NCBI GenBank assembly: GCA_028715345.1
Contig: JAQUSB010000003.1
Span: forward strand, 2,004 to 66,003
Direction of reading: 5' to 3'
Source of the DNA: Candidatus Omnitrophota bacterium
GTDB lineage: Bacteria; Omnitrophota; Gorgyraeia; 2-01-FULL-45-10
DNA length: 64,000 nucleotides
Below the pieces are notes generated by a model. The model made no database searches and had not been told where the DNA came from. It saw nothing but the letters and a program-made list of their open reading frames with translations. The translations under genes were made by a program, and so were the position numbers. Positions 3,773 to 25,709 of this stretch are shown here, in pieces. Numbering within the stretch: position 1 is the first letter of the stretch; every line of letters starts with the position of its first letter.

Positions 3773-4814
3773 TCGGCGGTTTATTCCATTTTCCCAAAAC
3801 GAGCCCTTTTAAGACTTCGCGCAGGTCTATATCGCCCGGGCAAGCTTCGATGCACCTGCCGCAGCCCGTGCACGCGAAATAATTCAATACTTCCGGGAAG
3901 AAATCGAACTTCTTCTCGAACCTGTTGCGCAGGCGCTCATATAACTGCTTCCTGGGGTTCGCGCCCCCGGCGACCCTGGCAAATGTATTGTAGAGGCAGG
4001 CATCCCACATCCTGAAACGCTTGTTCCCTGCCGCCGTCTTCTCGTCGAATAAGAGGAAGCAGTGGCACGTCGGGCAGACGAGGTTGCACGCCCCGCATTC
4101 GACGCACGTGGAGGCGAAGTCCTGCCATAACTGCACCAGGTTATAATTTTTCTTCACGGCGCCTTTTATCTGGGCGGTATTCTGTGTTCCCCTTTTATCG
4201 ATAAAATACTGCACTTCCCTGGTAACTTTTTCGCGGTTGGCCTGCCTTTTATTGAGGTCTGTAGCCGTATGCGGTTTGAAGAACATCCTGAAATTATTTA
4301 CAAGCCTCTCGCCCGCGGCGCTACCTACTTCGACGATGAAATGGTCATTTATACCGGACAGGTTTATATCGAAATATTTTTGCGGGTAAGGCGCGCCTTC
4401 CATCGCCAGGCAGAAGCATGTCTCTTTGGCGTAAGTGCAGTCTGTACCTATAATGAGGGTGTTTTTCCTGTTCTCGGCGTAAAAGGGATCCTCGGCGTCG
4501 CCTTTTAAAAATACGAAATCCTGCAGGATCAGGCTCGACAGGTCGCAGCCCTTCACCCCGGCTATGATAACCGGCTTCTTTTCTTTGGGTTTGCCGTCAA
4601 GGATCTTTTCTCTGGCGGGATTTATAAAGCTCTTTAAGGGCTGCGTCTGTCTGATGCCGCCCAACTCTATATCGCTTTCTTTTCCTGGATCGAACTCGCC
4701 GAAATGCAGCCTTTCCCCTTTAACGTAGGGGACGAAAATCCTATGCTCGGAAGACAACCTCGTGAATAGATCGTACAGATCTTTTTTGGTGATTTTGTAA
4801 ATTTTTTTCTCCAT
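3765..4814 (-). CDS. Iron-sulfur subunit, sulfhydrogenase beta (HydB) / AsrA-like
   Basis: 349 aa. Motifs CVECGACNLVCPTCHC and CTGCGRCIEACP. The HydB/AsrA family is always paired with the gamma/B subunit. Confidence 0.6.
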   Translation of the reverse strand: MEKKIYKITKKDLYDLFTRLSSEHRIFVPYVKGERLHFGEFDPGKESDIELGGIRQTQPLKSFINPAREKILDGKPKEKKPVIIAGVKGCDLSSLILQDFVFLKGDAEDPFYAENRKNTLIIGTDCTYAKETCFCLAMEGAPYPQKYFDINLSGINDHFIVEVGSAAGERLVNNFRMFFKPHTATDLNKRQANREKVTREVQYFIDKRGTQNTAQIKGAVKKNYNLVQLWQDFASTCVECGACNLVCPTCHCFLLFDEKTAAGNKRFRMWDACLYNTFARVAGGANPRKQLYERLRNRFEKKFDFFPEVLNYFACTGCGRCIEACPGDIDLREVLKGLVLGKWNKPPND

Positions 4815-6053: not shown

Positions 6054-7058
6054 TTAGCATATCCTGGGCAATTGTTCACCCGATAGCATATCCACAAGCC
6101 TGCGCCCGCCTGCCGCCGTATTTAGGCAAACTTTGCCCTTCTCTTCTTTAGTGATTTCCCCTATGATGTTCGCGCGCTTTCCGTTCTTATCTTTGCGGAT
6201 GATCTTCAATATTTTGTCCGCCTCTTTTGCCGCCGCGATAAAAATAACGCGCCCTTCGCAGGCAAGATAGAGCGGATCAAAACCCAAAAGCTCGCACGCC
6301 TGCCCGACGCCGTCACTGACAGGGACGGCTTTCTCGTCCAGAGCGATCCCGAACTTATGCGATGCCGTGATCTCGTTAAGCGTCGTGGCAACGCCGCCCC
6401 TCGTCGGATCTCTCATGAATTTCACGCTCGTCCCGGACGCTTTCAGGACTTTTTCGATAAGCCTGTTCAAGGCAGCCGAGTCGCTCTTTACTTTTGTTTT
6501 GAATTCAATGCCTTCGCGCCCAGACAGGACGCTTATAGCGTGTTCGCCTATGGGCCCGCTTACGATAACTTTATCTCCTGCCTTTATCCTATCGGGCGAA
6601 AGTTTATCGTAATATATCTCGCCCAGCCCGCTCGTATTTATGAAAATCTTGTCACAGCTTCCCCTCTCGACCACTTTTGTATCGCCGGTCACTATGCTTA
6701 CGCCTGCTTTTTCGGCTGCCGCGGCGGCGGACCTTACTATCTTTTCCAATATGCTTTTATCGAGCCCTTCTTCTATTATGAGGCCGAACGAAAGGTGTGC
6801 CGGGCGGGCGCCGCATACCGAAAGATCGTTCACCGTCCCGTGCACAGCGAGGCTGCCTATGTCCCCTCCCGGGAAAAATATCGGGTTAACAACGTATGAG
6901 TCCGTCGTGAACGCTATCCGCGTTTTGCCTATCGTCAATATCGCGGAATCTTTTTTCTGGCGCAGTATATTATTATCGAATTCCTTCATGATTACAGAAT
7001 CGATGAGCTTATGCATCAATGTCCCGCCGCTGCCGTGGGAAAGCGTTATCTTGTCCAT
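6054..7058 (-). CDS. hypE: Hydrogenase maturation carbamoyl dehydratase HypE
   Basis: AIR-synthase-like fold (MDKITLSHGSGG...). Ends with the conserved C-terminal PRIC motif. Start moved to the internal ATG at 7056-7058, because the longer ORF would overlap hypD by 68 nt. Confidence 0.8.
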   Translation of the reverse strand: MDKITLSHGSGGTLMHKLIDSVIMKEFDNNILRQKKDSAILTIGKTRIAFTTDSYVVNPIFFPGGDIGSLAVHGTVNDLSVCGARPAHLSFGLIIEEGLDKSILEKIVRSAAAAAEKAGVSIVTGDTKVVERGSCDKIFINTSGLGEIYYDKLSPDRIKAGDKVIVSGPIGEHAISVLSGREGIEFKTKVKSDSAALNRLIEKVLKASGTSVKFMRDPTRGGVATTLNEITASHKFGIALDEKAVPVSDGVGQACELLGFDPLYLACEGRVIFIAAAKEADKILKIIRKDKNGKRANIIGEITKEEKGKVCLNTAAGGRRLVDMLSGEQLPRIC

Positions 7059-7062
7059 TTTA

Positions 7063-8145
7063 TTATATCCTGCCCCTGTATTTATAATACGCCGCGCACG
7101 CCCCTTCGCTCGACACCATACAGGCGCCAACGGGATGCTCCGGGGTACAAAGTTTCGCGAACAATTTGCACTCGGGCGGCGTCTTCACTCCCTTTATTAC
7201 TTCGCCGCATATGCACGCCTTGTTTTCCTTCGGCGCGGCTATCTTCGGTTTAAATCTCGCCTCGGCATCGAATGCGCCGAATTCTTTTCGTATTTTTAAG
7301 CCGCTCTTTTTTATGCATCCTATACCGCGCCACGAAGAATCGTCAGCCTCAAAAACTTTATCGATGCTGTTTTTCGCTAATCTGTTCCCCGACTTCGTTA
7401 TTATCCTCGTATATTGTATCTCGATTTTCGGAGTCTTTTGTTCCAACAGCATCAATATCGCCTGCAATATATCGAGCGGCTCGATCCCGGCTACAACGCA
7501 GCGTTTCCCTCTTTTAGTCAAAAATCGATACGGCGCCGTCCCTATTACCGCGCTGACGTGGCCCGGTAGTAAAAATCCGTCTATATTAAGCTTCGGCTCT
7601 TCGGTCAGGGCCTTCAATGCCTCAGGCATCGTTTTATGGCCGCAGAGGACGGAGTAATTTTTCAATTTTTCTTTTTTTGCCGCGATAATAGACTGCGCGA
7701 CCGTCGGCGCCGTCGTTTCAAAACCTATCCCTAAAAATATCACCTCTTTATCCGGGTTTTTCTTTGCCAATTCAAGCGCGTCCATACTCGAATAGACCAT
7801 TTTTACTGCCGCGCCGCGGGCTTTTTCCTTATCGAGGCTCGAATGCGAGCCCGGCACCCTGAACATGTCGCCGAATGTCGCGATAATAGAATCTTTCCTT
7901 CGGGCAAGCGCTATCGCTTTATCGATGAACTCATTCGGCGTAACGCATACCGGGCATCCCGGGCCGGATATGAGGTTGATGTTCCCGGGCAATATGCCGC
8001 GCAAGCCGAAACGGAATATGCTCATCGTGTGCGTACCGCACACTTCCATGAAATTGTACCCACGGCGCGGATCCGCCTTCGCGCGTATCCGGCCGGCGAC
8101 TTTGTCTATGAGCCGCCTATTTCTGAATTCGTCTATGTATTTCAT
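7063..8145 (-). CDS. hypD: Hydrogenase maturation factor HypD
   Basis: 360 aa. Motifs CGTH, GPGCPVC and CPVC characteristic of HypD. Confidence 0.85.
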   Translation of the reverse strand: MKYIDEFRNRRLIDKVAGRIRAKADPRRGYNFMEVCGTHTMSIFRFGLRGILPGNINLISGPGCPVCVTPNEFIDKAIALARRKDSIIATFGDMFRVPGSHSSLDKEKARGAAVKMVYSSMDALELAKKNPDKEVIFLGIGFETTAPTVAQSIIAAKKEKLKNYSVLCGHKTMPEALKALTEEPKLNIDGFLLPGHVSAVIGTAPYRFLTKRGKRCVVAGIEPLDILQAILMLLEQKTPKIEIQYTRIITKSGNRLAKNSIDKVFEADDSSWRGIGCIKKSGLKIRKEFGAFDAEARFKPKIAAPKENKACICGEVIKGVKTPPECKLFAKLCTPEHPVGACMVSSEGACAAYYKYRGRI

Positions 8146-8148
8146 TTT

Positions 8149-8355
8149 TTACAGGTCTTTTAACGCGCGGAGAGTCTTACGCGCTTCGCTTTCTTTGAGT
8201 TTCTCGATCGCGAATCCCGCGTGCATGAGGATGTAGTCACCCGGCCTCGCCGTCTTCATCAGCGAGAAGTTCGCTTTTTTGCGCAAGCCGCCGGATTCGA
8301 CGACCCCATCGTCACCGTCTATCTTTATGACCTTCATCGGTATCCCTAAACACAT
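8149..8355 (-). CDS. hypC: Hydrogenase maturation factor HypC/HupF
   Basis: 68 aa. N-terminal MCLGIP motif. Confidence 0.8.
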   Translation of the reverse strand: MCLGIPMKVIKIDGDDGVVESGGLRKKANFSLMKTARPGDYILMHAGFAIEKLKESEARKTLRALKDL

Positions 8356-9470
8356 AGTGCCCTCGTATTCGCTATCGCTATCTGCCCTATCGGTATGCCG
8401 ATATCGTTCACCGGAACGCTTCTTGGCGGATACACCTCCAGGCCTTTTGCCCTCAGCCCTTCCACCGCCCTGGCCGTAAGATATTTGTTCTGAAAAACAC
8501 CGCCGGACAACACGACTTTCTTCGTCTTAAACCGCTTGCTTAAGCCCGCCGATATTTTCACGATAATATCCGCTATCGTATTGTGAAATTTGCACGCGAT
8601 AACGGCTTTGTCCGTCTTTTTTGCCAGGTCTTTAACTACCCCTTTTATCAGCGGGGAAGTCTTTATTATAAGCTCTTTTCTTTCTTTTCCGATATCAAAA
8701 TCATACTTATCGCGGCAGCCCGTCCGGATCGTCTTTTCCAGCTCTATCGGCAGCTCGGCCTCCCGCGTAACGCGGTCTTTGGCTAAAATAAGGCTCGCCG
8801 CGCCGTCGAACAGCCTGCCCGCGCTCGACGTAAGCGGAGAATTTATATTTTTATCGATCATTTTCTTTATCACAGACGCGTCGGCGCGGTTTCGTTTCTT
8901 TACAATGGTCATGAACTTGGGGCCGAATGCGCCATACAGGTAACTTACGGCCATGCGCCACGGCTGCCTCACCGCCATATCTGCGCCGGGCATCGGATAA
9001 TATTCCAGGTGAGCGGCCCTGGTAAAGCCTTTCAGCGAGCCTGCAAAAAATTCACCGCCCCAGATATTTCCGTCCGTGCCGTAGCCCGTGCCGTCGAAAG
9101 CGACGCCTATCACGTCTGCTTTTATGTCATTGTCCGCGATCGAGGAAGCGATATGGGCTTCGTGGTGCTGTATCCTGCAAAGCCTCGTTCCTTTGGTTTT
9201 AAGCTGTAAACTCTCGGCGAAATGCGTCGAAAAGTAATCCGGATGAAGGTCGCAAGCTATCACCTGCGGTTTTATGCCGAATTTTTTGCGGTACAGATCG
9301 ACTTCGGCGGAATATCTCTTAAAATTACCGAGCTCGCCCAGGTCGCCGAGATCGTACACGAGGAACGCGTCTCTGCCGGCAGCCAGGGCAAACGCGCCCT
9401 TCAGGTCGGCCCCGCAGGCAAGTATCGGTTTTTTCACGCTAAACGGCAGCTTCATCCGTCGAGTAACCAT
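8346..9470 (-). CDS. hypF: HypF-like carbamoyltransferase, Kae1/YgjD-like C-terminal domain only (truncated architecture)
   Basis: C-terminal HypF motifs CDLHPDY and LSGGVFQN...VP.NDIGI..GQ. The acylphosphatase, Zn-finger and YrdC parts are absent. Probable start is ATG 9468-9470 or 9453-9455. The ORF track's longer GTG start at 9713 would run through the palindrome-rich intergenic region. Confidence 0.6.
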   Translation of the reverse strand: MVTRRMKLPFSVKKPILACGADLKGAFALAAGRDAFLVYDLGDLGELGNFKRYSAEVDLYRKKFGIKPQVIACDLHPDYFSTHFAESLQLKTKGTRLCRIQHHEAHIASSIADNDIKADVIGVAFDGTGYGTDGNIWGGEFFAGSLKGFTRAAHLEYYPMPGADMAVRQPWRMAVSYLYGAFGPKFMTIVKKRNRADASVIKKMIDKNINSPLTSSAGRLFDGAASLILAKDRVTREAELPIELEKTIRTGCRDKYDFDIGKERKELIIKTSPLIKGVVKDLAKKTDKAVIACKFHNTIADIIVKISAGLSKRFKTKKVVLSGGVFQNKYLTARAVEGLRAKGLEVYPPRSVPVNDIGIPIGQIAIANTRALCV

Positions 9471-9910
9471 GGTAATATTATAACAAATCACCGTCCCGCG
9501 GAGGGGAAAATTTTTCGCTGCCCCGTAAAAGAATTCCCTCGGGATTGTGCCTCGCGTGGACGCGCAATTTTCAACCATGTGAAAATTGCGCTCGGTAAAA
9601 TTTCTCGTACGCTGCCTCGAAATTTTAACGCCCCGCTCGGCACGAATCCCTGCGGAAATTCTTTTCACCGGAGATCGAAAAACTTTTTTTACTAGTGTAG
9701 AGAAAATTTTCACTTACACGGGATGGCAGAACTTTTGGGTGGTGCCGGAGCGAATCTTGAAATTTTCGATACCTTATGCCGATGCAGGCTTTACCATCGA
9801 AAATTTCACGACAGTGAGCGAGGATGGCTTCTTCCTTCGCGAACGACGAGCGGAGGCACCACCCGAAAGTAAATGCCTGACTGAGGTGAAAATTTTCTCG
9901 GAGCGAACCC
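9471..9910. promoter_or_regulatory. Intergenic region with about 9 copies of the self-complementary motif GAAAATTTTC (variants GAAATTTTC, GAAAATTTC)
   Basis: Motif copies near 9509, 9572, 9581, 9597, 9620, 9703, 9760, 9801 and 9890. Contains a 12-bp-stem hairpin 9562-9591 (gcgcaattttca-accatg-tgaaaattgcgc). No credible ORF. Lies upstream of the hypF start and downstream of the pdaD stop. Confidence 0.4.
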
Positions 9911-10480
9911 CTAGAAGAGAAACACTGCCGCGGCGACTACCGTGGAATAATTGCCGTCCGGGCCGACTACGGCGGATTGGGTGGTATTTGACGTGCGGAT
10001 GATCTTGTCGCTCAGCTGGTATATGGCCTTATTCTCGTCCCACGACTTATCCTCGTCGAATTCGAGGCCGAGGGTCGACGCCAACATTTCTACCGCCAGG
10101 TCTTCGGCGAGGTCCCCGGCCACTTTTTCGCTCTGGCCGAAGGCGTGGTGCTCGCTCAAGTACCCGTAGGCCTGCGGATCCGCCGGGACGGCACAGCCGA
10201 TCGACGCCGCGATAAGGCGGTGCGGCTCGTTGCCGTTGCACCTGGACATTACTGCATACGTTATCATCCCGGGATAAAGTTCTTTTAAGCCTTCGTTCCT
10301 GGAAACGACTTTGCACTCGGGCGGTAGTATGCTCGAGACATGGACGAGGTTGCACTTCTCTATACCCGCGTCGCGCAGAGCAAGCTCGAAGCTCCTCAAT
10401 TCCGCCTTGTGGGTGCCGACACCTTTAGTGAAGAACATCTTTTTGGGAACAAGCAGGTTTTTCCTGGGAACTAATAGCAT
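9911..10480 (-). CDS. pdaD: Pyruvoyl-dependent arginine decarboxylase
   Basis: FTKGVGTHK...SFELAL..AGI...[11 protein letters not shown] matches the PdaD family, including the serinolysis site region. Paired with the agmatinase gene. Confidence 0.7.
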
Positions 10481-19577: not shown

Positions 19578-22500
19578 TTAACCGGGCCGCAGGACTTTTA
19601 TCGGGCTCTTCGTTATGTCTCTTTGAATGCGGCTTATTTTAAGTTCGCCCCTCGGTTTATCTATATCGTCCGGCAGGACCAATTTGTTCTTGGCCAGGGA
19701 AGCTCCTAAAACGCCTTCCATAGCCTGGCGCAGCATCCAGCCTGCCGCACCCGTATAGCCGTGCCATATCATGCGCCCCTGGTCGAATGTGGTCAGGATG
19801 TCGGCCGATTGTTTATTAGGCTGCCCGCCGTACAGCTCCACCTCTTTTACGCGCGGTATCGGCGAAACTTTGAGCCACAGCCTGTACGAAGTCTTTCTAT
19901 ATTCATCGGCTTTGGCGCGGTCGCCTCTGCGGTCGAATTCTTCGGCGATAAGGCGCGCCGCCCTTACAAGCCACTGGACTCCGTGGCAATACATACCGTT
20001 CTCGCGCACGCCTTCCGGATATTTGCTGCTCCTGCCGAGATACGGCTTGGTGTCTTCGCGCAGGGCCGGCCACCCGAGGAGGATAGCGTTCTCCCTCTCC
20101 AGGACGTCCAGCGCCGTATTGAATACCGTCAGGCCCCTTTCGAAATTGATGCCTGCTTTCACCGCCCACGACGCCGTCAGCGCGTCTATCTCCCAGACGC
20201 CGCTTCCTTTTATGCCTATCTCCGTGCCGTCGTCATGGAACGCGCGCAAATACCTGTCGCCTCTCCACGTCTTCTCGAGGCTTGTTTTAAGATCTTCCAT
20301 CCTCTTTACGTAATACGCTTTTTTCTCCTTGCCTTCCTTCATCTCTATGATATTGACCATCTCTTTCAGGATATAATAAAGGAAGAAGCCGAGCCATACG
20401 CTCTCGCCCTTGCCTTCGCTTCCTATCTCGTCGAGCCCGTCGTTCCAATCGCCCGTCTGGATAAGCGGCAGCCCGTTCTTGCCGGTCCTGTCCTTTAAGA
20501 TGAGGTCTACGGACTTCATGCAGTGCTTGTATATGGTGTCGGATCTCGTCGTCCTGTGGTACAGATGCCCCCAGCCCTGCTTGTTCTTCGGGAGCTTCGC
20601 GAACGGGAATTGCGATATGACGTACGAGGCCATCTCGTCGAGTATCGACGTATCGCCCGTCGTCCTTATATATTCGACAACGCCCCAGACAAGCCATACA
20701 GGATTGTCGGAAGCGTGGGACCTGCATGAGAACGCAGTCCGTCCGTCCGTCAACGTAAAGAACCAGTGGAAGACGTCGCCTTCGATGAACTGCTGGGAGG
20801 CGTGCAGTATTATCTGCTTGCGCGCCAGCGCCGGATCGACCCATATGAGGTTGACGGTATCCTGCAGCTGGTCCCTGAAACCGTAAGCGCCGCTCGTCTG
20901 GTAGAACCCGCGCCTCGCCCATATACGTTCGGCAAGGGCCTGGTACTTCAGCCAGTCCTGGTAGCGGTCGAATTCGGGCTTGTTCGTTTCGACTTTGAGC
21001 GTATCCATAAGGCCGAGCCACCACTTCTTTGTCTGGGCCAGGCTCTTACGTACCTCGTCCACGTTCTTATATTTTCTGATTATTTTATCCGCTTCTTTCC
21101 TGTCGTCGCATTGGCCCATTACGACCGACATGGTATGCTCTCCGTGCGCGGGTATAGTGACCTCCTCCAGGAACGCGGCCACCTGCGAAATATCGCCGAA
21201 ACATTTCCTGTCGGATGAGCCTTCTTTTACCATATACGGGCGCACGACATCGCCGCCGCATCCGAAGAACTTGCCGCGGCTCGTTTCGACCGCAGGCGAC
21301 TTCATAGAAGTGGAAACGAACGCCCATCCTGAGCGGAAAATGTTACGGGGGTTATTGAAGAATAACGACCCGGTCGACCTTTGATATTTCATCATCAGCG
21401 GGCCGGCCCGTTCGGGCTGGAATCCCAGCACCATCTGGAAATACGGGACAATGCGCAATTTCTTGTCGCGGTCCGAATTATTCTTCACCGTGAGCAGATA
21501 TAAACCTGCAGGGTCGTCCGGCGGGACAAATACCGTAAGCTCAGTCGAAACAGAACCGCGGGCCATACGGAAGATAGCGGTCCCGTCGACGCTGAACTCG
21601 GATTCGCATCGGGCGCTCTTATCGCGGAGCGGCAGATACGTCGGCGAGTACCAGTCGTTGCCGTCCGGGTCGTACAGGTAGAACGCTTCCGTCGGTATCT
21701 CTTTTGTGACTATGTCCGGCCAGTCGGGCGTCAGCCTGTTCTGCTGTGAATTACCGTTAGAGGACGTGTGAAGCCCCCTGTTCGTGACCATGATCGAATG
21801 GACTGCGTTAGATACGGCATGGTCGATAGGGCGCGGCGTGAAGGGCGTATGGACGACCAGTTTTTTGCCGTCCTGGCTGAACGTGGAATACGGCTGCGGC
21901 GTCCCCGGGGGGATCTCGCCGTGGCCGATAAGGACAGACGCTTTTTTGGCCGCAGCGGCCGCTTTCGCTTTGGGCGCGGCGCTCTGGGGCTTCAGATGTT
22001 GGGCGATCAATTCGAGAGCCGTCTTCTTATTTTTCGTAAACCCTATCATGAAGCGTACCTTCACTGAAGCCTTCGGAGCGATCTGTGCATTGACTGCAAG
22101 GCTTCCTATAGGATCGAATGTCGGATACGGGTTCGTATCGCGCGCCGTCAGGAAATTGAGCGTCTCGAGTATTCGCGGCGACCAGATACTGCGCACGCGG
22201 CCGATGAAATCGACTCGTGAAGTGAGGAACCCTTCCGGCGCGGCATCGCTGGCCAGGATACCCATCGTCTTCGCGCTCTTCTGGTACGCGAGCACGGCGT
22301 TGGAAGAACTTACGTATTCCATCTCCGGATATAACCTGGCGTATTGCGTATGGAACCTGTCATGGATACCGCCGACAAGCACCCATTCAAGGTACGGGAC
22401 CACTTTAAGTTCCCTCGCCTTGTCCGTGGTATTTTCGAGAGTGACTTCCCATATCTCGGCGTTGCTTTCTTTATCCGGCAGGCTTATCTTTATATTCGTC

Positions 22501-25500
22501 CGGATGCCTTTACTGGTATTTGCCACCCTGAAAGAATCACCGCGTTTTTCTATCTTAGACGCGTCAAATTTGCCTTTCGGGAAATTTCCCACGACGGGCC
22601 AGAACCTCTTATCGCTCTCGGGCTTTTCCGCCTTATCTACGAGGAATAATATCCTGCCGCAGGGATCCATAGGGTCATACGCGCGCCTTGTAACGTCGCA
22701 TTCCTTATGAATACCTTCGCTGAATATTTCTCCGTTGTCCCTGATGATGACCCTGTATTCCCTGTTCGCGAGCTCATGGCTTTCCACGGTGCGCGATCTT
22801 TTCCTGTGATGGAGCGCGCGCAGGATAACAGAGAAGACGGTGCATGCTATAACGGCCGCGATAATGACCGCCGTTTTTTCGAATACAGGCATCGACTGGA
22901 ACGTCGCGATCAGGCCCGGTTTATTCATAGCGGCGTTCTGCATCGCTATGGAAGTGTTCCAGACCTTGTCCCATTCGTTGCCGCGGGGAATATAAAAAGG
23001 TATCAGGAGCGGCGCCCATGTAGCGAACCTTTTCACCGCGTCCGGTATATAACGCTGGGCGGCGGCAGGGCCGATGAAACGCGCTATGCGTTCGTCGAGC
23101 CTGTCGAGGCCGAGGAAGCTCAAATTAACGAGAGTGGCGACGCGCAGCCCCATATGGTCCATCCATATGAGCACCCTGAAGAAATCGCACGCCATTATCC
23201 AGATGAAGACCTGCAGGCTCCACGCGCGGAACGCTTCGGGCGACATCGTGATGTTATTGAATATCGCGAATCCCGTGCGGATAGCGCCGTCCTGGTTATA
23301 CCACGTGGGATCGGGCATCATGCGAAGGCCGGTAAATATGATCGGCGACATCCAGAGGCCCCATCTCAATACATATATCATGTGCTCGACAAGCTGGGCA
23401 AAGCCCGCCTTCGAAAAGAAAAATTTTATCGGGGTCTTGTCTTTTTCGAAGTATGCCTGCATGAATACTTTATTTATAGCGAACAGCCACGCGGCTATCG
23501 ACCAGTTAATGACACCTGCCAGGGATTCCGTGTATATAAGCTTTACGCCCCCGGTGTAAGTGCCGAGGTCGATACGGCCCCACTTGTTAACGAGCGGGTA
23601 TGTGACGTAATTGACGGCTTCGAAGCCGGAGCTTACATATAATTTGAACTTCTCGACGATCACAGGCACCTGCAGCGCGTCCATATAGAAGGCCGCGGCG
23701 CTGCCGATAAAAGCTCCGAGTACGGAATCGACGAAATACAGCTTCCAGGTATGGACGCGGCCCGTACCTTTGAAAGCGTAAAAAGCATCTCTTAAAAAAC
23801 TGACGCCGCCTGACGACAGGATGCCTATAATGAGGCCGAACACTATCCTGTTCGGCATCGCAAGAGTTATCATATTCTTACTCATCGCGTAGCTGAACCC
23901 GAACCCTACTATAGCGCCCCTGGCGTATAACGAAAGATCCCGGTAACTATAACGCGTCCTCTCAAAGAACGGCAGGCTGCCGTCGAACGATTCTATGATC
24001 GTCTTGAGGAACGGGAATATCAGGGCGCCTGCGATGATGCCTATCAGCATAGGGACCGAGCCCATCACTTTCTGGGATACGGGTGAAGCGATAATCATAT
24101 TCAGGACAAAGAGTATACCCATCACTATAGCGCTGAAGGCCATACCCTTCTTCATACCGCCGTTAACGTGTTTTAAGAGAGTTTCCCCGGACGGAGCGAT
24201 AAGCTTGCCGCTATCTAAAAGCATACCGGTGATAAGGTAAACTTCGGCCCAAAGGCCGCCGAAGGAAAGCATGCTCGTAATGATGCAGGCGACTGCTTTT
24301 AACGCCGCAGGCAGTGAAGCAACGGCCGCGGTGGAGCCGAAATCGGCGATCAGCGGGGCCACAACAACGCCCATCGATACGAGAAAGACCGACAGGTGCG
24401 CTCTAAAAGTCTTCAAAGGCCTCTCTCTTATGGAGATGCCTATCCCGTTAGCAACGGCTTCATTGAATCCGAATATGATGATAAGCCTGCCGACATTTTC
24501 GGTAATTATAGACCAGTATTTCCATATGCCCAATGTAAGGGCATTGCCCAAAGTATGAAGGAGGCCGGGGCTTTCCACTAAAAGAAGCCAGTTGAATAGA
24601 TACGGCACTCCGGCTATCAATATAGAAGATATCGGCCTAAGCTGTTTGCCCGAAGAGGCAAGCGACCTGGCGTTCGCGGCGTGGTAAATTATAAAGGTAA
24701 GGGCGGCAACGGTGTTGCTGAAAGTCAAAAGCTGGACCCATGAAGAAGGCGGCTGTAAAAGCTCCATCCTGCTCGATGCGGCGGCCAAAAATCCCGAAAC
24801 TAGGACATTACGCAATGTCTCGGCGCCTGTGAGGCTTTTCCCGGTAAGCCCGTATTTGAGTATCTGCGCTATACCTGCGCCCAGCAGCGCCACTATGACG
24901 AAATTCACCCCAAGCCCGGCGTCGAGGGCGCCTTTTATCCCCATAGCGTAAACGCTTATGCCGGTTCCGAGTATCAATACCGCCGACACGCCGTAAAGAA
25001 GATCTCGTTTAATGCCCGACACAGGCGAACCATCTTCTTTCTTACGCGCAGATATCCTGCCGAATAAAGCCATTATCAACGCGGCAAGAAAACCGACTAA
25101 TAAGACTATAGAAACTTTTATCAGGGCAAGGTACTTCTGCAAAAATGACATTTTGAAAAATTCAAGATCGAAATATAATATGCCTTCGAGTTTTTTATTC
25201 GGGTCGAGCGGGCTTACCACAAATACGACTTCATTGAGCGGCCCTATCCTGTCCCAATCCACCGCTTCATTTATATAACTCCAGTCTTTGGTAAGGCGCA
25301 TCGGTATGGCCTGCATAGTACCCTTGCCTTTTATCTCGAGCTTAACGGATACCTGTTTCAGCTGTTCGGGAGTAGACGCTTTTACGCTGGCCCTGACGGC
25401 ATCGACCATTTTCGGGCTGAATCTGGAAGGAAAGCTTTTTGTCCACACTCCGGCAATAGCGCCGCCGTATATCGTGTAATCGAACTTCAGGATGTTCTTA

Positions 25501-25709
25501 TCTATCAATTCTTCGCGTTCGCCCGTCACGTCGCCCATGGCAGGGCCCATATTGAACATGCCTTTTTCGCCCGCTTCGAGGATGCTGAAACCCGTAGGAT
25601 CGTTAACAACGGAAGGGCGTTTCTCGGCTGCGCAGGCGGAAGATGTAAATATTCCCGCCGCTATGATAAGGACAGACAGGGCCTGCAATATTCTTCTGCG
25701 TTCGATCAT
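19578..25709 (-). CDS. Giant membrane protein: N-terminal periplasmic domain, about 20 transmembrane helices, and C-terminal GH94 phosphorylase/glucanase-like catalytic domain
   Basis: 2043 aa. GH94 hallmarks in the C-terminal third: YQTSGAYGFRDQLQD (DNA about 20856-20900) and TGDWNDG (about 20441-20465). Two beta-sandwich GH94 N-domain-like segments. Residues about 200-1000 are continuously hydrophobic. No GT-A/GT84 DxD domain recognised. Confidence 0.6.
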   Translation of the reverse strand: MIERRRILQALSVLIIAAGIFTSSACAAEKRPSVVNDPTGFSILEAGEKGMFNMGPAMGDVTGEREELIDKNILKFDYTIYGGAIAGVWTKSFPSRFSPKMVDAVRASVKASTPEQLKQVSVKLEIKGKGTMQAIPMRLTKDWSYINEAVDWDRIGPLNEVVFVVSPLDPNKKLEGILYFDLEFFKMSFLQKYLALIKVSIVLLVGFLAALIMALFGRISARKKEDGSPVSGIKRDLLYGVSAVLILGTGISVYAMGIKGALDAGLGVNFVIVALLGAGIAQILKYGLTGKSLTGAETLRNVLVSGFLAAASSRMELLQPPSSWVQLLTFSNTVAALTFIIYHAANARSLASSGKQLRPISSILIAGVPYLFNWLLLVESPGLLHTLGNALTLGIWKYWSIITENVGRLIIIFGFNEAVANGIGISIRERPLKTFRAHLSVFLVSMGVVVAPLIADFGSTAAVASLPAALKAVACIITSMLSFGGLWAEVYLITGMLLDSGKLIAPSGETLLKHVNGGMKKGMAFSAIVMGILFVLNMIIASPVSQKVMGSVPMLIGIIAGALIFPFLKTIIESFDGSLPFFERTRYSYRDLSLYARGAIVGFGFSYAMSKNMITLAMPNRIVFGLIIGILSSGGVSFLRDAFYAFKGTGRVHTWKLYFVDSVLGAFIGSAAAFYMDALQVPVIVEKFKLYVSSGFEAVNYVTYPLVNKWGRIDLGTYTGGVKLIYTESLAGVINWSIAAWLFAINKVFMQAYFEKDKTPIKFFFSKAGFAQLVEHMIYVLRWGLWMSPIIFTGLRMMPDPTWYNQDGAIRTGFAIFNNITMSPEAFRAWSLQVFIWIMACDFFRVLIWMDHMGLRVATLVNLSFLGLDRLDERIARFIGPAAAQRYIPDAVKRFATWAPLLIPFYIPRGNEWDKVWNTSIAMQNAAMNKPGLIATFQSMPVFEKTAVIIAAVIACTVFSVILRALHHRKRSRTVESHELANREYRVIIRDNGEIFSEGIHKECDVTRRAYDPMDPCGRILFLVDKAEKPESDKRFWPVVGNFPKGKFDASKIEKRGDSFRVANTSKGIRTNIKISLPDKESNAEIWEVTLENTTDKARELKVVPYLEWVLVGGIHDRFHTQYARLYPEMEYVSSSNAVLAYQKSAKTMGILASDAAPEGFLTSRVDFIGRVRSIWSPRILETLNFLTARDTNPYPTFDPIGSLAVNAQIAPKASVKVRFMIGFTKNKKTALELIAQHLKPQSAAPKAKAAAAAKKASVLIGHGEIPPGTPQPYSTFSQDGKKLVVHTPFTPRPIDHAVSNAVHSIMVTNRGLHTSSNGNSQQNRLTPDWPDIVTKEIPTEAFYLYDPDGNDWYSPTYLPLRDKSARCESEFSVDGTAIFRMARGSVSTELTVFVPPDDPAGLYLLTVKNNSDRDKKLRIVPYFQMVLGFQPERAGPLMMKYQRSTGSLFFNNPRNIFRSGWAFVSTSMKSPAVETSRGKFFGCGGDVVRPYMVKEGSSDRKCFGDISQVAAFLEEVTIPAHGEHTMSVVMGQCDDRKEADKIIRKYKNVDEVRKSLAQTKKWWLGLMDTLKVETNKPEFDRYQDWLKYQALAERIWARRGFYQTSGAYGFRDQLQDTVNLIWVDPALARKQIILHASQQFIEGDVFHWFFTLTDGRTAFSCRSHASDNPVWLVWGVVEYIRTTGDTSILDEMASYVISQFPFAKLPKNKQGWGHLYHRTTRSDTIYKHCMKSVDLILKDRTGKNGLPLIQTGDWNDGLDEIGSEGKGESVWLGFFLYYILKEMVNIIEMKEGKEKKAYYVKRMEDLKTSLEKTWRGDRYLRAFHDDGTEIGIKGSGVWEIDALTASWAVKAGINFERGLTVFNTALDVLERENAILLGWPALREDTKPYLGRSSKYPEGVRENGMYCHGVQWLVRAARLIAEEFDRRGDRAKADEYRKTSYRLWLKVSPIPRVKEVELYGGQPNKQSADILTTFDQGRMIWHGYTGAAGWMLRQAMEGVLGASLAKNKLVLPDDIDKPRGELKISRIQRDITKSPIKVLRPG

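Follow-up and report, generated by a model that had tools for sequence, protein, structure and literature searches.

A long spacer between pdaD and hypF in an Omnitrophota genome is probably made of two members of a dispersed family of hairpin-forming intergenic repeats

In a Candidatus Omnitrophota bacterium, the gene pdaD is separated from hypF, which follows it on the minus strand, by 440 bp of intergenic DNA (9471-9910, from the pdaD stop codon at 9911-9913 to the hypF start at 9470) crowded with self-complementary A/T-tract sites. The gap lies in a stretch of 64,000 nucleotides of contig JAQUSB010000003.1, called the window here (labels beginning with L denote the loci and metagenome contigs fetched for comparison), and a sequence-only reading of this stretch, which had given the extent of the gap just as we find it, left a puzzle: Does so long a spacer hold an operator for the hydrogenase maturation genes, a structured RNA, or the remains of a longer hypF? 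The answer that we consider probable is that the gap consists of two adjacent members, modules A and B, of a clade-specific, dispersed and modular family of hairpin-forming intergenic repeats of Candidatus Omnitrophota. The family is likely to be previously undescribed and, by analogy with known repeats, similar in kind to repetitive extragenic palindromes and bacterial interspersed mosaic elements (REP/BIME), BOX elements or miniature inverted-repeat transposable elements (MITEs), and without a role specific to the hyp genes.

The palindromic sites are fewer than had been counted previously, when a 10-bp palindrome was put at about nine copies, one-nucleotide variants included. The ungapped form GAAAATTTTC occurs twice exactly (9702 and 9888) and once with a single mismatch (9506), the other A/T-tract sites being 9-bp forms (GAAATTTTC at 9759 and GAAAATTTC at 9799), half-sites and gapped forms. 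Their clustering, on the other hand, is real and lies far above chance: The gap, which amounts to 0.7% of the window, holds 7 of the 38 window copies of AAATTT and five of the eight copies of GAAAATT. Outside the gap the one-mismatch motif is found at 6 sites, which is about the chance level (4.5 are expected for the whole window after shuffling), and the motif enrichment that had been suggested as a check was thus not seen in the rest of the window. Each A/T-tract site forms one strand of a helix within module A or B, and the inner hairpin stems of the modules reuse similar A-tract and T-tract sequence. Compared with shuffled sequences, the gap has a much more stable fold on either strand (z = -8.5 for plus, -8.25 for minus); the hairpin with a perfect 12-bp stem at 9562-9591, already recognised by the sequence-only reading, is present. 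Consensus scans of the gap for a sigma-70 promoter or an intrinsic terminator found neither.

When the gap was compared with the fetched loci by blastn, two separate homologies emerged: Positions 9566-9630, within module A, match L002 at the same junction in inverted orientation relative to the genes, and positions 9724-9873, within module B, match a copy in L011 that lies in another genomic context. When 52 copies of A, that of the window being left out, were used for a covariance model, this model recovered the window copy on the plus strand with 145.6 bits (E = 2.4e-39), as compared with 46.5 bits for the minus strand, and found it to be the sole A copy in the 64-kb window. A metagenome scan, in which the pattern was the loop of hairpin 2, returned 95 stretches, with 5-7 matches on single contigs of 0.71-0.83 Mb, and about 60 distinct complete copies of A, typically of 165-175 nt, were collected from genomes and metagenomes of Candidatus Omnitrophota. 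The A alignment was ascertained through that single loop sequence. A covariance-model search over 806 kb of loci found about 55 copies, some of them independent of the search pattern, in which the loop and even the A/T motif are altered while pairing is kept, as in GAAGATCGC/GCGATCTTC of L005. Because the loop was the search pattern and varies in these pattern-independent copies, its invariance in the main alignment is an ascertainment artefact.

The fold of A is constrained and its sequence is non-coding. In an alignment of 52 sequences, the consensus comprises 52 base pairs, with 96.4% of the cells paired alongside a mean sequence identity of 76%. Compensatory double changes occur at 33 of these 52 pairs, against 16.2 in column shuffles (none of 500 reaching the observed value) and at most 15 with slid partners. 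The terminal helix, which joins columns 3-13 with columns 185-195, is 92.9% paired and shows double changes at seven of its 11 pairs; helix 6 of the family, corresponding to hairpin 1, is 98.9% paired, one of its pairs being CG in 25 copies, AU in 22 and UA in 3; and helix 7, corresponding to hairpin 2, reaches 99.3% pairing and has 5 pairs that covary. In the L002 copy the outer stem has a wholly different sequence from that of the window and yet is complementary (GGGTGGGTGT/ACACCCACACCC). Among A copies lying after the same orthologous gene, there are 25 compensatory double changes versus 15 broken pairs.

Short assemblies from the species of the window match it exactly over pdaD, module B and some of module A, and then switch context inside the repeat, for example to fmt; because of this switch, further copies must be present in the genome of this species. 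In L176 (about 1090-1352) and L177 (about 1020-1042), the switch inside A leads to fmt or to a different copy of B, which may reflect either chimeric assembly or real recombination. Two A copies stand head-to-head in L155 (4056-4237 on the plus strand and 4228-4404 on the minus strand) with a common terminal arm, resembling a REPIN doublet.

Module B is likewise repeated elsewhere: An nhmmer search gave 15 further matches across 13 other loci, with E-values down to 1.7e-29, from which an alignment of 11 sequences was made. Helix P1 of B covaries, reading GTGCGCCGCC/GGCGGCCAC in L088, L165, L169 and L087 and CTTTCGGG/CCCGAAAG in L011, and helix P2 shows two compensatory double changes with respect to L011 (TTAAAATTTCGAT/ATCGAAATTTTAA). 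The modules are multi-helical and 165-240 nt long, and every type shares termini of about 12 bp, inverted and of the form T-A3-4-T5-CG ... CG-A5-T3-4-A, so that the units end in TAAAATTTTTCG; the lengths of the terminal A-run and T-run covary, being (4,4) 25 times and (3,3) 16 times. The modules join into mosaic arrays such as A-B, A-C-D, B'-C-D and others containing E, with the C-D pair of about 300 nt, and E, following either A or B.

If the gap is made of dispersed repeats, what stands at the same place in related organisms? The orthologous junction of pdaD and hypF was readable in 12 related loci. It is empty in L003 (33 bp, with a PdaD 97% identical to that of the window), L166 (20 bp) and L013 (33 bp); it has no modules and a length of 56-70 bp in L001, L007 and L009; and it is occupied over 200-675 bp in L138, L002, L010, L087, L005 and L014, by other modules or in the opposite orientation, A itself being inverted relative to the window in L002 and L138. 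Because the syntenic junction spans 20-33 bp in the closest relatives and 200-675 bp with differing modules elsewhere, the gap is read as an insertion, and the modules are gained or lost between relatives. The extra DNA sits between the pdaD stop and the putative promoter element of hypF, TGnTATAAT, which is kept 6-12 nt before the hypF start in 12 of the 12 loci, with or without modules (L001-L003, L005, L007, L009, L010, L013, L014, L087, L138 and L166). From this arrangement hypF appears to have its own putative extended -10 promoter downstream of the modules, and the position of the element suggests that its mRNA is leaderless or nearly so.

The wider genomic context of A was drawn from open reading frames (ORFs) of at least 90-100 aa, with no gene finder. 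The gene on the 5' side of A is co-oriented with it in 47 cases and opposed in 7; considering both flanking genes, 31 copies lie in sense (+,+), 5 in antisense (-,-), 13 between convergent genes and a single one between divergent genes. In 28 cases the TAA of the upstream ORF constitutes the first three bases of the element, and the native C-terminus of the upstream protein is intact where this could be checked, namely for PdaD in L003 compared with L002 and L138. The repeats are flanked by the genes of transketolase, cyclophilin, YmdB, an NrnA-like DHH protein, DapB, SpoIID, RecO, DnaK and CoaX, as well as IlvC, TruB, NrdR, S6, Pgk, ValS and Fmt; the same orthologous sites, after NrnA, DapB, SpoIID, PdaD and HtpX, are occupied across genomes. 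From these orientations we infer that the repeats reside in transcribed spacers, not in promoters. The window copy of A is antisense to its flanking genes, the minority orientation for its family, and most B copies are also antisense to their neighbours. An association specific to hyp genes was suspected because seven hyp-centred loci all carried modules, and was dropped after the metagenome scan gave unrelated contexts.

How might such elements have come to lie behind pdaD? The modules, closed by their common inverted termini of about 12 bp, with the GAAAATTTTC sites as strands of the module helices, would be gained, lost or exchanged at intergenic junctions; carried on mRNA within the spacers, they would fold into stem structures that are compact and closed. 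If the analogy with REP/BIME, BOX, Correia and enterobacterial repetitive intergenic consensus (ERIC) elements holds, they may be non-autonomous repeats, either selfish or semi-domesticated, whose fold would persist because copies that cannot fold fail to propagate, or because a stable structure at the 3' end is either tolerated or of use. In the present case the result would be a large stem structure at the 3' end of the pdaD operon, before the putative hypF promoter, which might for example shield the upstream transcript of the pdaD operon from exonucleases.

Several results weigh against this interpretation. Identical flanks of 3 bp or more, such as a target-site duplication would leave, do not occur around A copies beyond chance; TA...TA flanks, which are ambiguous, occur in 34 of the 60 copies versus a shuffled mean of 27 (maximum 33), a TA that may be part of the inverted repeat. 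A search for left and right termini 600-3000 bp apart in 1.45 Mb found no autonomous insertion sequence (IS) with the same termini. Within one genome, A copies are 66-88% identical and the nearest relative of each always lies in another contig, so there is no sign of recent transposition. Moreover, the sense bias and the stop-codon abutment are explained no less well by selection for RNA function than by selfish spread, and the same holds for the G-U-rich, strand-specific conservation of the D module and for the compensatory evolution at orthologous sites. A long pair of termini in L158 was considered as the parent IS and rejected, for it is really an A copy that an unrelated IS interrupts: In L158 (about 300-1900) and in L147, an IS with a DDE-type transposase of 482 aa lies inside the CATG loop of A hairpin 1, with the same junction in both contigs.

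These points bring forward the alternative that must be weighed most seriously, even if we hold it to be improbable: The modules would be functional structured RNAs in operon transcripts, present in many copies from their use at many operons and not from selfish spread. They could serve as punctuation for processing or stability in cis (the A/U-rich closing stem being, for example, an RNase III-type site), couple translation termination at the abutting UAA to later events, or be excised as stable RNAs. A related proposal, which we would likewise regard as doubtful, takes A, B, C-D and E for 'cassettes' of structured RNA that form part of operon transcripts, with a common A/U-rich stem starting on the upstream stop codon, and D for a new class of RNA with a complex fold. 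Such RNA readings draw support from the 31:5 sense bias in co-directional contexts, from the 28 copies starting on an upstream TAA with the native C-terminus intact, from the 96.4% pairing maintained at 76% mean identity without young copies, from the compensatory changes between copies at orthologous sites, and from the occupation of the same sites across genomes. G-U pairs are also enriched in the terminal helix of A (GU 8 at columns 13-185, UG 14 at columns 23-174).

The D module, of about 235 nt, adds to this support. It is a highly conserved, multi-helix element with the invariant unpaired stretches GACATACAGATAC and TTGTAAACCCCAT, and in 17 of 18 copies it lies in sense to the neighbouring genes, just 5' of truB, nrdR, rpsF, hypF, hypD, pgk, valS and fmt; its GU:AC ratio is 58:10, with U-G/C-G alternation in a well-supported helix. 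D has no match in Rfam and is a candidate for a new structured RNA class. A separate metagenome contig that also bears repeat modules, L174, carries a group I intron match on the plus strand (1155-1345; Rfam RF00028, 60.2 bits).

Against functional RNAs stands the lack of a strand signal over all A pairs (GU 43, AC 39), together with the equal folding of the window region on either strand, the antisense position of the window A and most B copies, the empty junction of the closest relatives, where the modules are dispensable, and the variation of module content at one junction among genomes. The structured non-coding RNA that the sequence-only reading had entertained is therefore borne out in part: The gap does contain two folded elements supported by covariation, but these are multi-copy dispersed repeats and not a single-locus RNA gene.

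Could the structure instead belong to DNA? The gap might be an element for recombination or inversion, with an invertible segment between the 14-bp repeats at 9700-9713 and 9886-9899, or a folded single-strand recombination site akin to attC. The perfect 14-bp inverted repeat around 172 bp speaks in its favour, together with the inversion of A when compared with its copies at this junction in L002 and L138, as does the likeness to attC of elements that follow ORF ends and conserve structure above sequence. However, the inverted repeats are no more than the termini common to every module copy, the orientation is one and the same in three independent assemblies of the species, nothing promoter-like is found within the segment, and the copies are dispersed among housekeeping genes and not arrayed beside an integrase (intI was not searched for); by inspection, the termini are also unlike the attC core sites (RYYYAAC/GTTRRRY). 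We therefore give this explanation very little credence.

Slightly less credible still is the multi-site operator that the sequence-only reading had favoured, a palindromic array for a dimeric factor of Rex, Fnr/CRP or IHF type controlling the hyp operon. The A/T-tract palindromic sites do lie directly upstream of the putative hypF promoter. In the window the proximal A5T4 terminus is about 20 nt upstream of TGnTATAAT, and in occupied junctions the A5T3-4 terminus of the last module is 19-23 nt upstream of it, a spacing similar in five of them that might be read as a regulatory one. Moreover, GTGAAAATTTTC resembles one half-site of the Rex consensus with its spacer. Nevertheless, the same motifs are helix strands of modules beside dozens of unrelated genes, and the closest relatives, L003 and L166, keep the hyp promoter without any such site. 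A scan for the Rex consensus TTGTGAANNNNTTCACAA with up to 3 mismatches, which did not include the Fnr/CRP consensus, gave 3 matches in the window, a number not above chance, and none of them in the gap. The covariation argues in the same direction, since non-palindromic stems covary with full turnover of sequence, which indicates selection for pairing and not for a sequence recognised by a protein, and the A/T motif itself is replaced in diverged copies (GAAGATCGC/GCGATCTTC in L005).

The weakest idea, that the gap is the decayed 5' half of hypF with its acylphosphatase, Zn-finger and YrdC domains, has in its favour that the window HypF is without its N-terminal half and has next to no chance of being right, given that a six-frame Pfam scan of the gap yields no match at E<=10, that in relatives a hypF of the same 374 aa starts 20-33 bp behind pdaD, and that repeat modules known from other places account for all of the gap. 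Because related loci carry this gene at such a short distance, a HypF reduced to its C-terminal half is the normal gene form of the clade, standing alone right after pdaD in the window (8346-9470, minus strand), in L003 (6001-7125) and in L166 (about 6505-7614). The acylphosphatase/Zn-finger/YrdC half is neither adjacent to the C-terminal half nor inside the gap.

Searches for known relatives of the repeats returned nothing of use. With Rfam 15 covariance models, neither the window nor nine loci gave anything at the gathering score, and the matches at E<=10 were at chance level only; ARAGORN found no tRNA-like genes; BLAST and pattern scans of viral contigs gave no match for a plasmid or phage origin; and the literature yielded nothing relevant on the terminus sequence or on repeats and structured RNAs of Omnitrophota. 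A replication origin, archaeal or bacterial, was considered on account of the repeated A/T-tract boxes and rejected: The organism is an Omnitrophota bacterium, the cumulative GC skew is monotonic in the window, and these boxes belong to the helices of dispersed repeats.

The features of the junction are collected in table 1. Along the minus strand, the gene order is that of a ROK-family protein, an HtpX-like M48 peptidase, a gene of unknown product, agmatinase and PdaD, then the gap, and after it the HypF C-terminal half, HypC, HypD and HypE; an Fe-S/FAD oxidoreductase and complex-I-like genes lie 3' of hypE. The top relatives of the window HypF protein all come from metagenome-assembled genomes of Candidatus Omnitrophota. 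Further along the window, the minus strand carries an ORF of 2043 aa (19578-25709).

Table 1. Modules A and B and their helices in the pdaD-hypF gap, the flanking genes and promoter element, and copies of module D (MFE, minimum free energy)
Feature	Position	Strand	Sequence	Basis and remarks
Repeat module A, complete copy	9506..9687	+	GGAATTCCC..GGGATTGTGCC (outer-stem variant)	covariance model and blastn/alignment
A 5' terminal arm	9506..9517	+	GAAAATTTTTCG	pairs with 3' arm 9675-9687; family terminal helix
A outer stem, 5' strand	9527..9551	+	AAAAGAATTCCCTCGGGATTGTGCC	pairs with 9639-9665; inverted repeat and MFE fold
A hairpin 1	9562..9591	+	GCGCAATTTTCA-ACCATG-TGAAAATTGCGC	perfect 12-bp stem, 9562-9573/9580-9591
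A hairpin 2	9593..9630	+	stems TAAAATTTC/GAAATTTTA, 14-nt loop TCGTACGCTGCCTC	inverted repeat; family helix 7
A outer stem, 3' strand	9639..9665	+	GGCACGAATCCCTGCGGAAATTCTTTT	inverted repeat, MFE fold and covariance model
A 3' terminal arm	9675..9687	+	GATCGAAAAACTTTT	slightly degenerate; covariance-model alignment
Repeat module B	9700..9899	+		nhmmer matches elsewhere; about 40-nt internal deletion and variant hairpin relative to a consensus of about 235 nt
B 5' terminal arm	9700..9713	+	GAGAAAATTTTCAC	perfect complement of 9886-9899; holds an exact GAAAATTTTC site
B helix P1, 5' strand	9731..9746	+	ACTTTTGGGTGGTGCC	pairs with 9855-9870
B helix P2 hairpin	9755..9811	+	TCTTGAAATTTTCGAT ... ATCGAAAATTTCACGA	inverted repeat
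B helix P1, 3' strand	9855..9870	+	GGCACCACCCGAAAGT	inverted repeat and B alignment
B 3' terminal arm	9886..9899	+	GTGAAAATTTTCTC	14-bp inverted repeat with 9700-9713; holds the other exact GAAAATTTTC site
Putative extended -10 promoter element	9477..9485	-	TGTTATAAT	read from sequence; 6 nt upstream of the hypF ATG, outside the modules
hypF, Kae1-like C-terminal half only, 374 aa	8346..9470	-		Pfam HypF_C and HypF_C_2; downstream neighbour
pdaD, pyruvoyl-dependent arginine decarboxylase	9911..10480	-		Pfam PvlArgDC, E = 4e-60; upstream neighbour along transcription
D module copy	L116:4176-4412	+		
D module copy	L107:8912-9145	-		
D module copy	L014:5659-5888	+		15 further matches besides the three copies listed

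In practical terms, reading the gap as a pair of dispersed repeats removes from the annotation of this locus the false inference of a hydrogenase-specific operator or of a decayed piece of hypF. The family also breaks metagenome assemblies of the clade and inflates its intergenic gaps. It comes from an uncultured phylum, for which such elements are not described in the libraries searched, and three of its features call for explanation, namely the abutment on stop codons, the bias towards sense orientation and the accompanying RNA-like module D.

The modules can be compared with several known systems. The attC sites of integrons are similar in being folded imperfect palindromes right after stop codons, with fixed orientation and structure conserved above sequence, whereas the modules form no cassette arrays, have core housekeeping genes as neighbours and possess termini unlike the R''/R' core sites. 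MITEs such as the Correia elements of Neisseria and the ERIC elements (or intergenic repeat units, IRU) of enterobacteria are also short, non-coding, dispersed and bounded by terminal inverted repeats; they share with the modules insertion polymorphism among relatives, co-transcription, orientation-dependent effects on transcripts, and differing interiors with common termini. The modules are distinguished from them by having old copies, no target-site duplication beyond a possible TA and no parent IS in 1.45 Mb, as well as by inner hairpins that are independently conserved by covariation, something not required by a mechanism that depends on terminal inverted repeats only. The BOX elements of Streptococcus pneumoniae resemble the modules in their variable combinations of sub-elements, intergenic position, co-transcription and stable predicted fold; they differ in sequence, size and phylum, and follow the order boxA-boxB(n)-boxC, whereas each module here has its own closing inverted termini.

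REP/BIME are multi-copy transcribed extragenic palindromes of Escherichia coli and other Proteobacteria. Like the modules, they lie at the 3' ends of genes in co-directional or convergent spacers and almost never in divergent promoters (a single divergent case was seen for A), and they form mosaic arrays with units in both orientations. In both, the hairpins are kept by compensatory change in old, diverged copies without visible recent bursts. REP units, however, are single hairpins of 20-40 nt with a GTAG-type 5' signature and a link to RAYT transposases, whereas the modules are multi-helix units of 165-240 nt with TAAAATTTTTCG termini, A being a long stem that bears two hairpins; REP units and modules show no sequence similarity. 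REP/BIME and the modules alike may stabilise the 3' ends of mRNA, and among the few mosaic repeats of bacterial intergenic regions the Omnitrophota family would constitute an unusually elaborate case, multi-helical, branched, strongly covarying and closed by one common stem.

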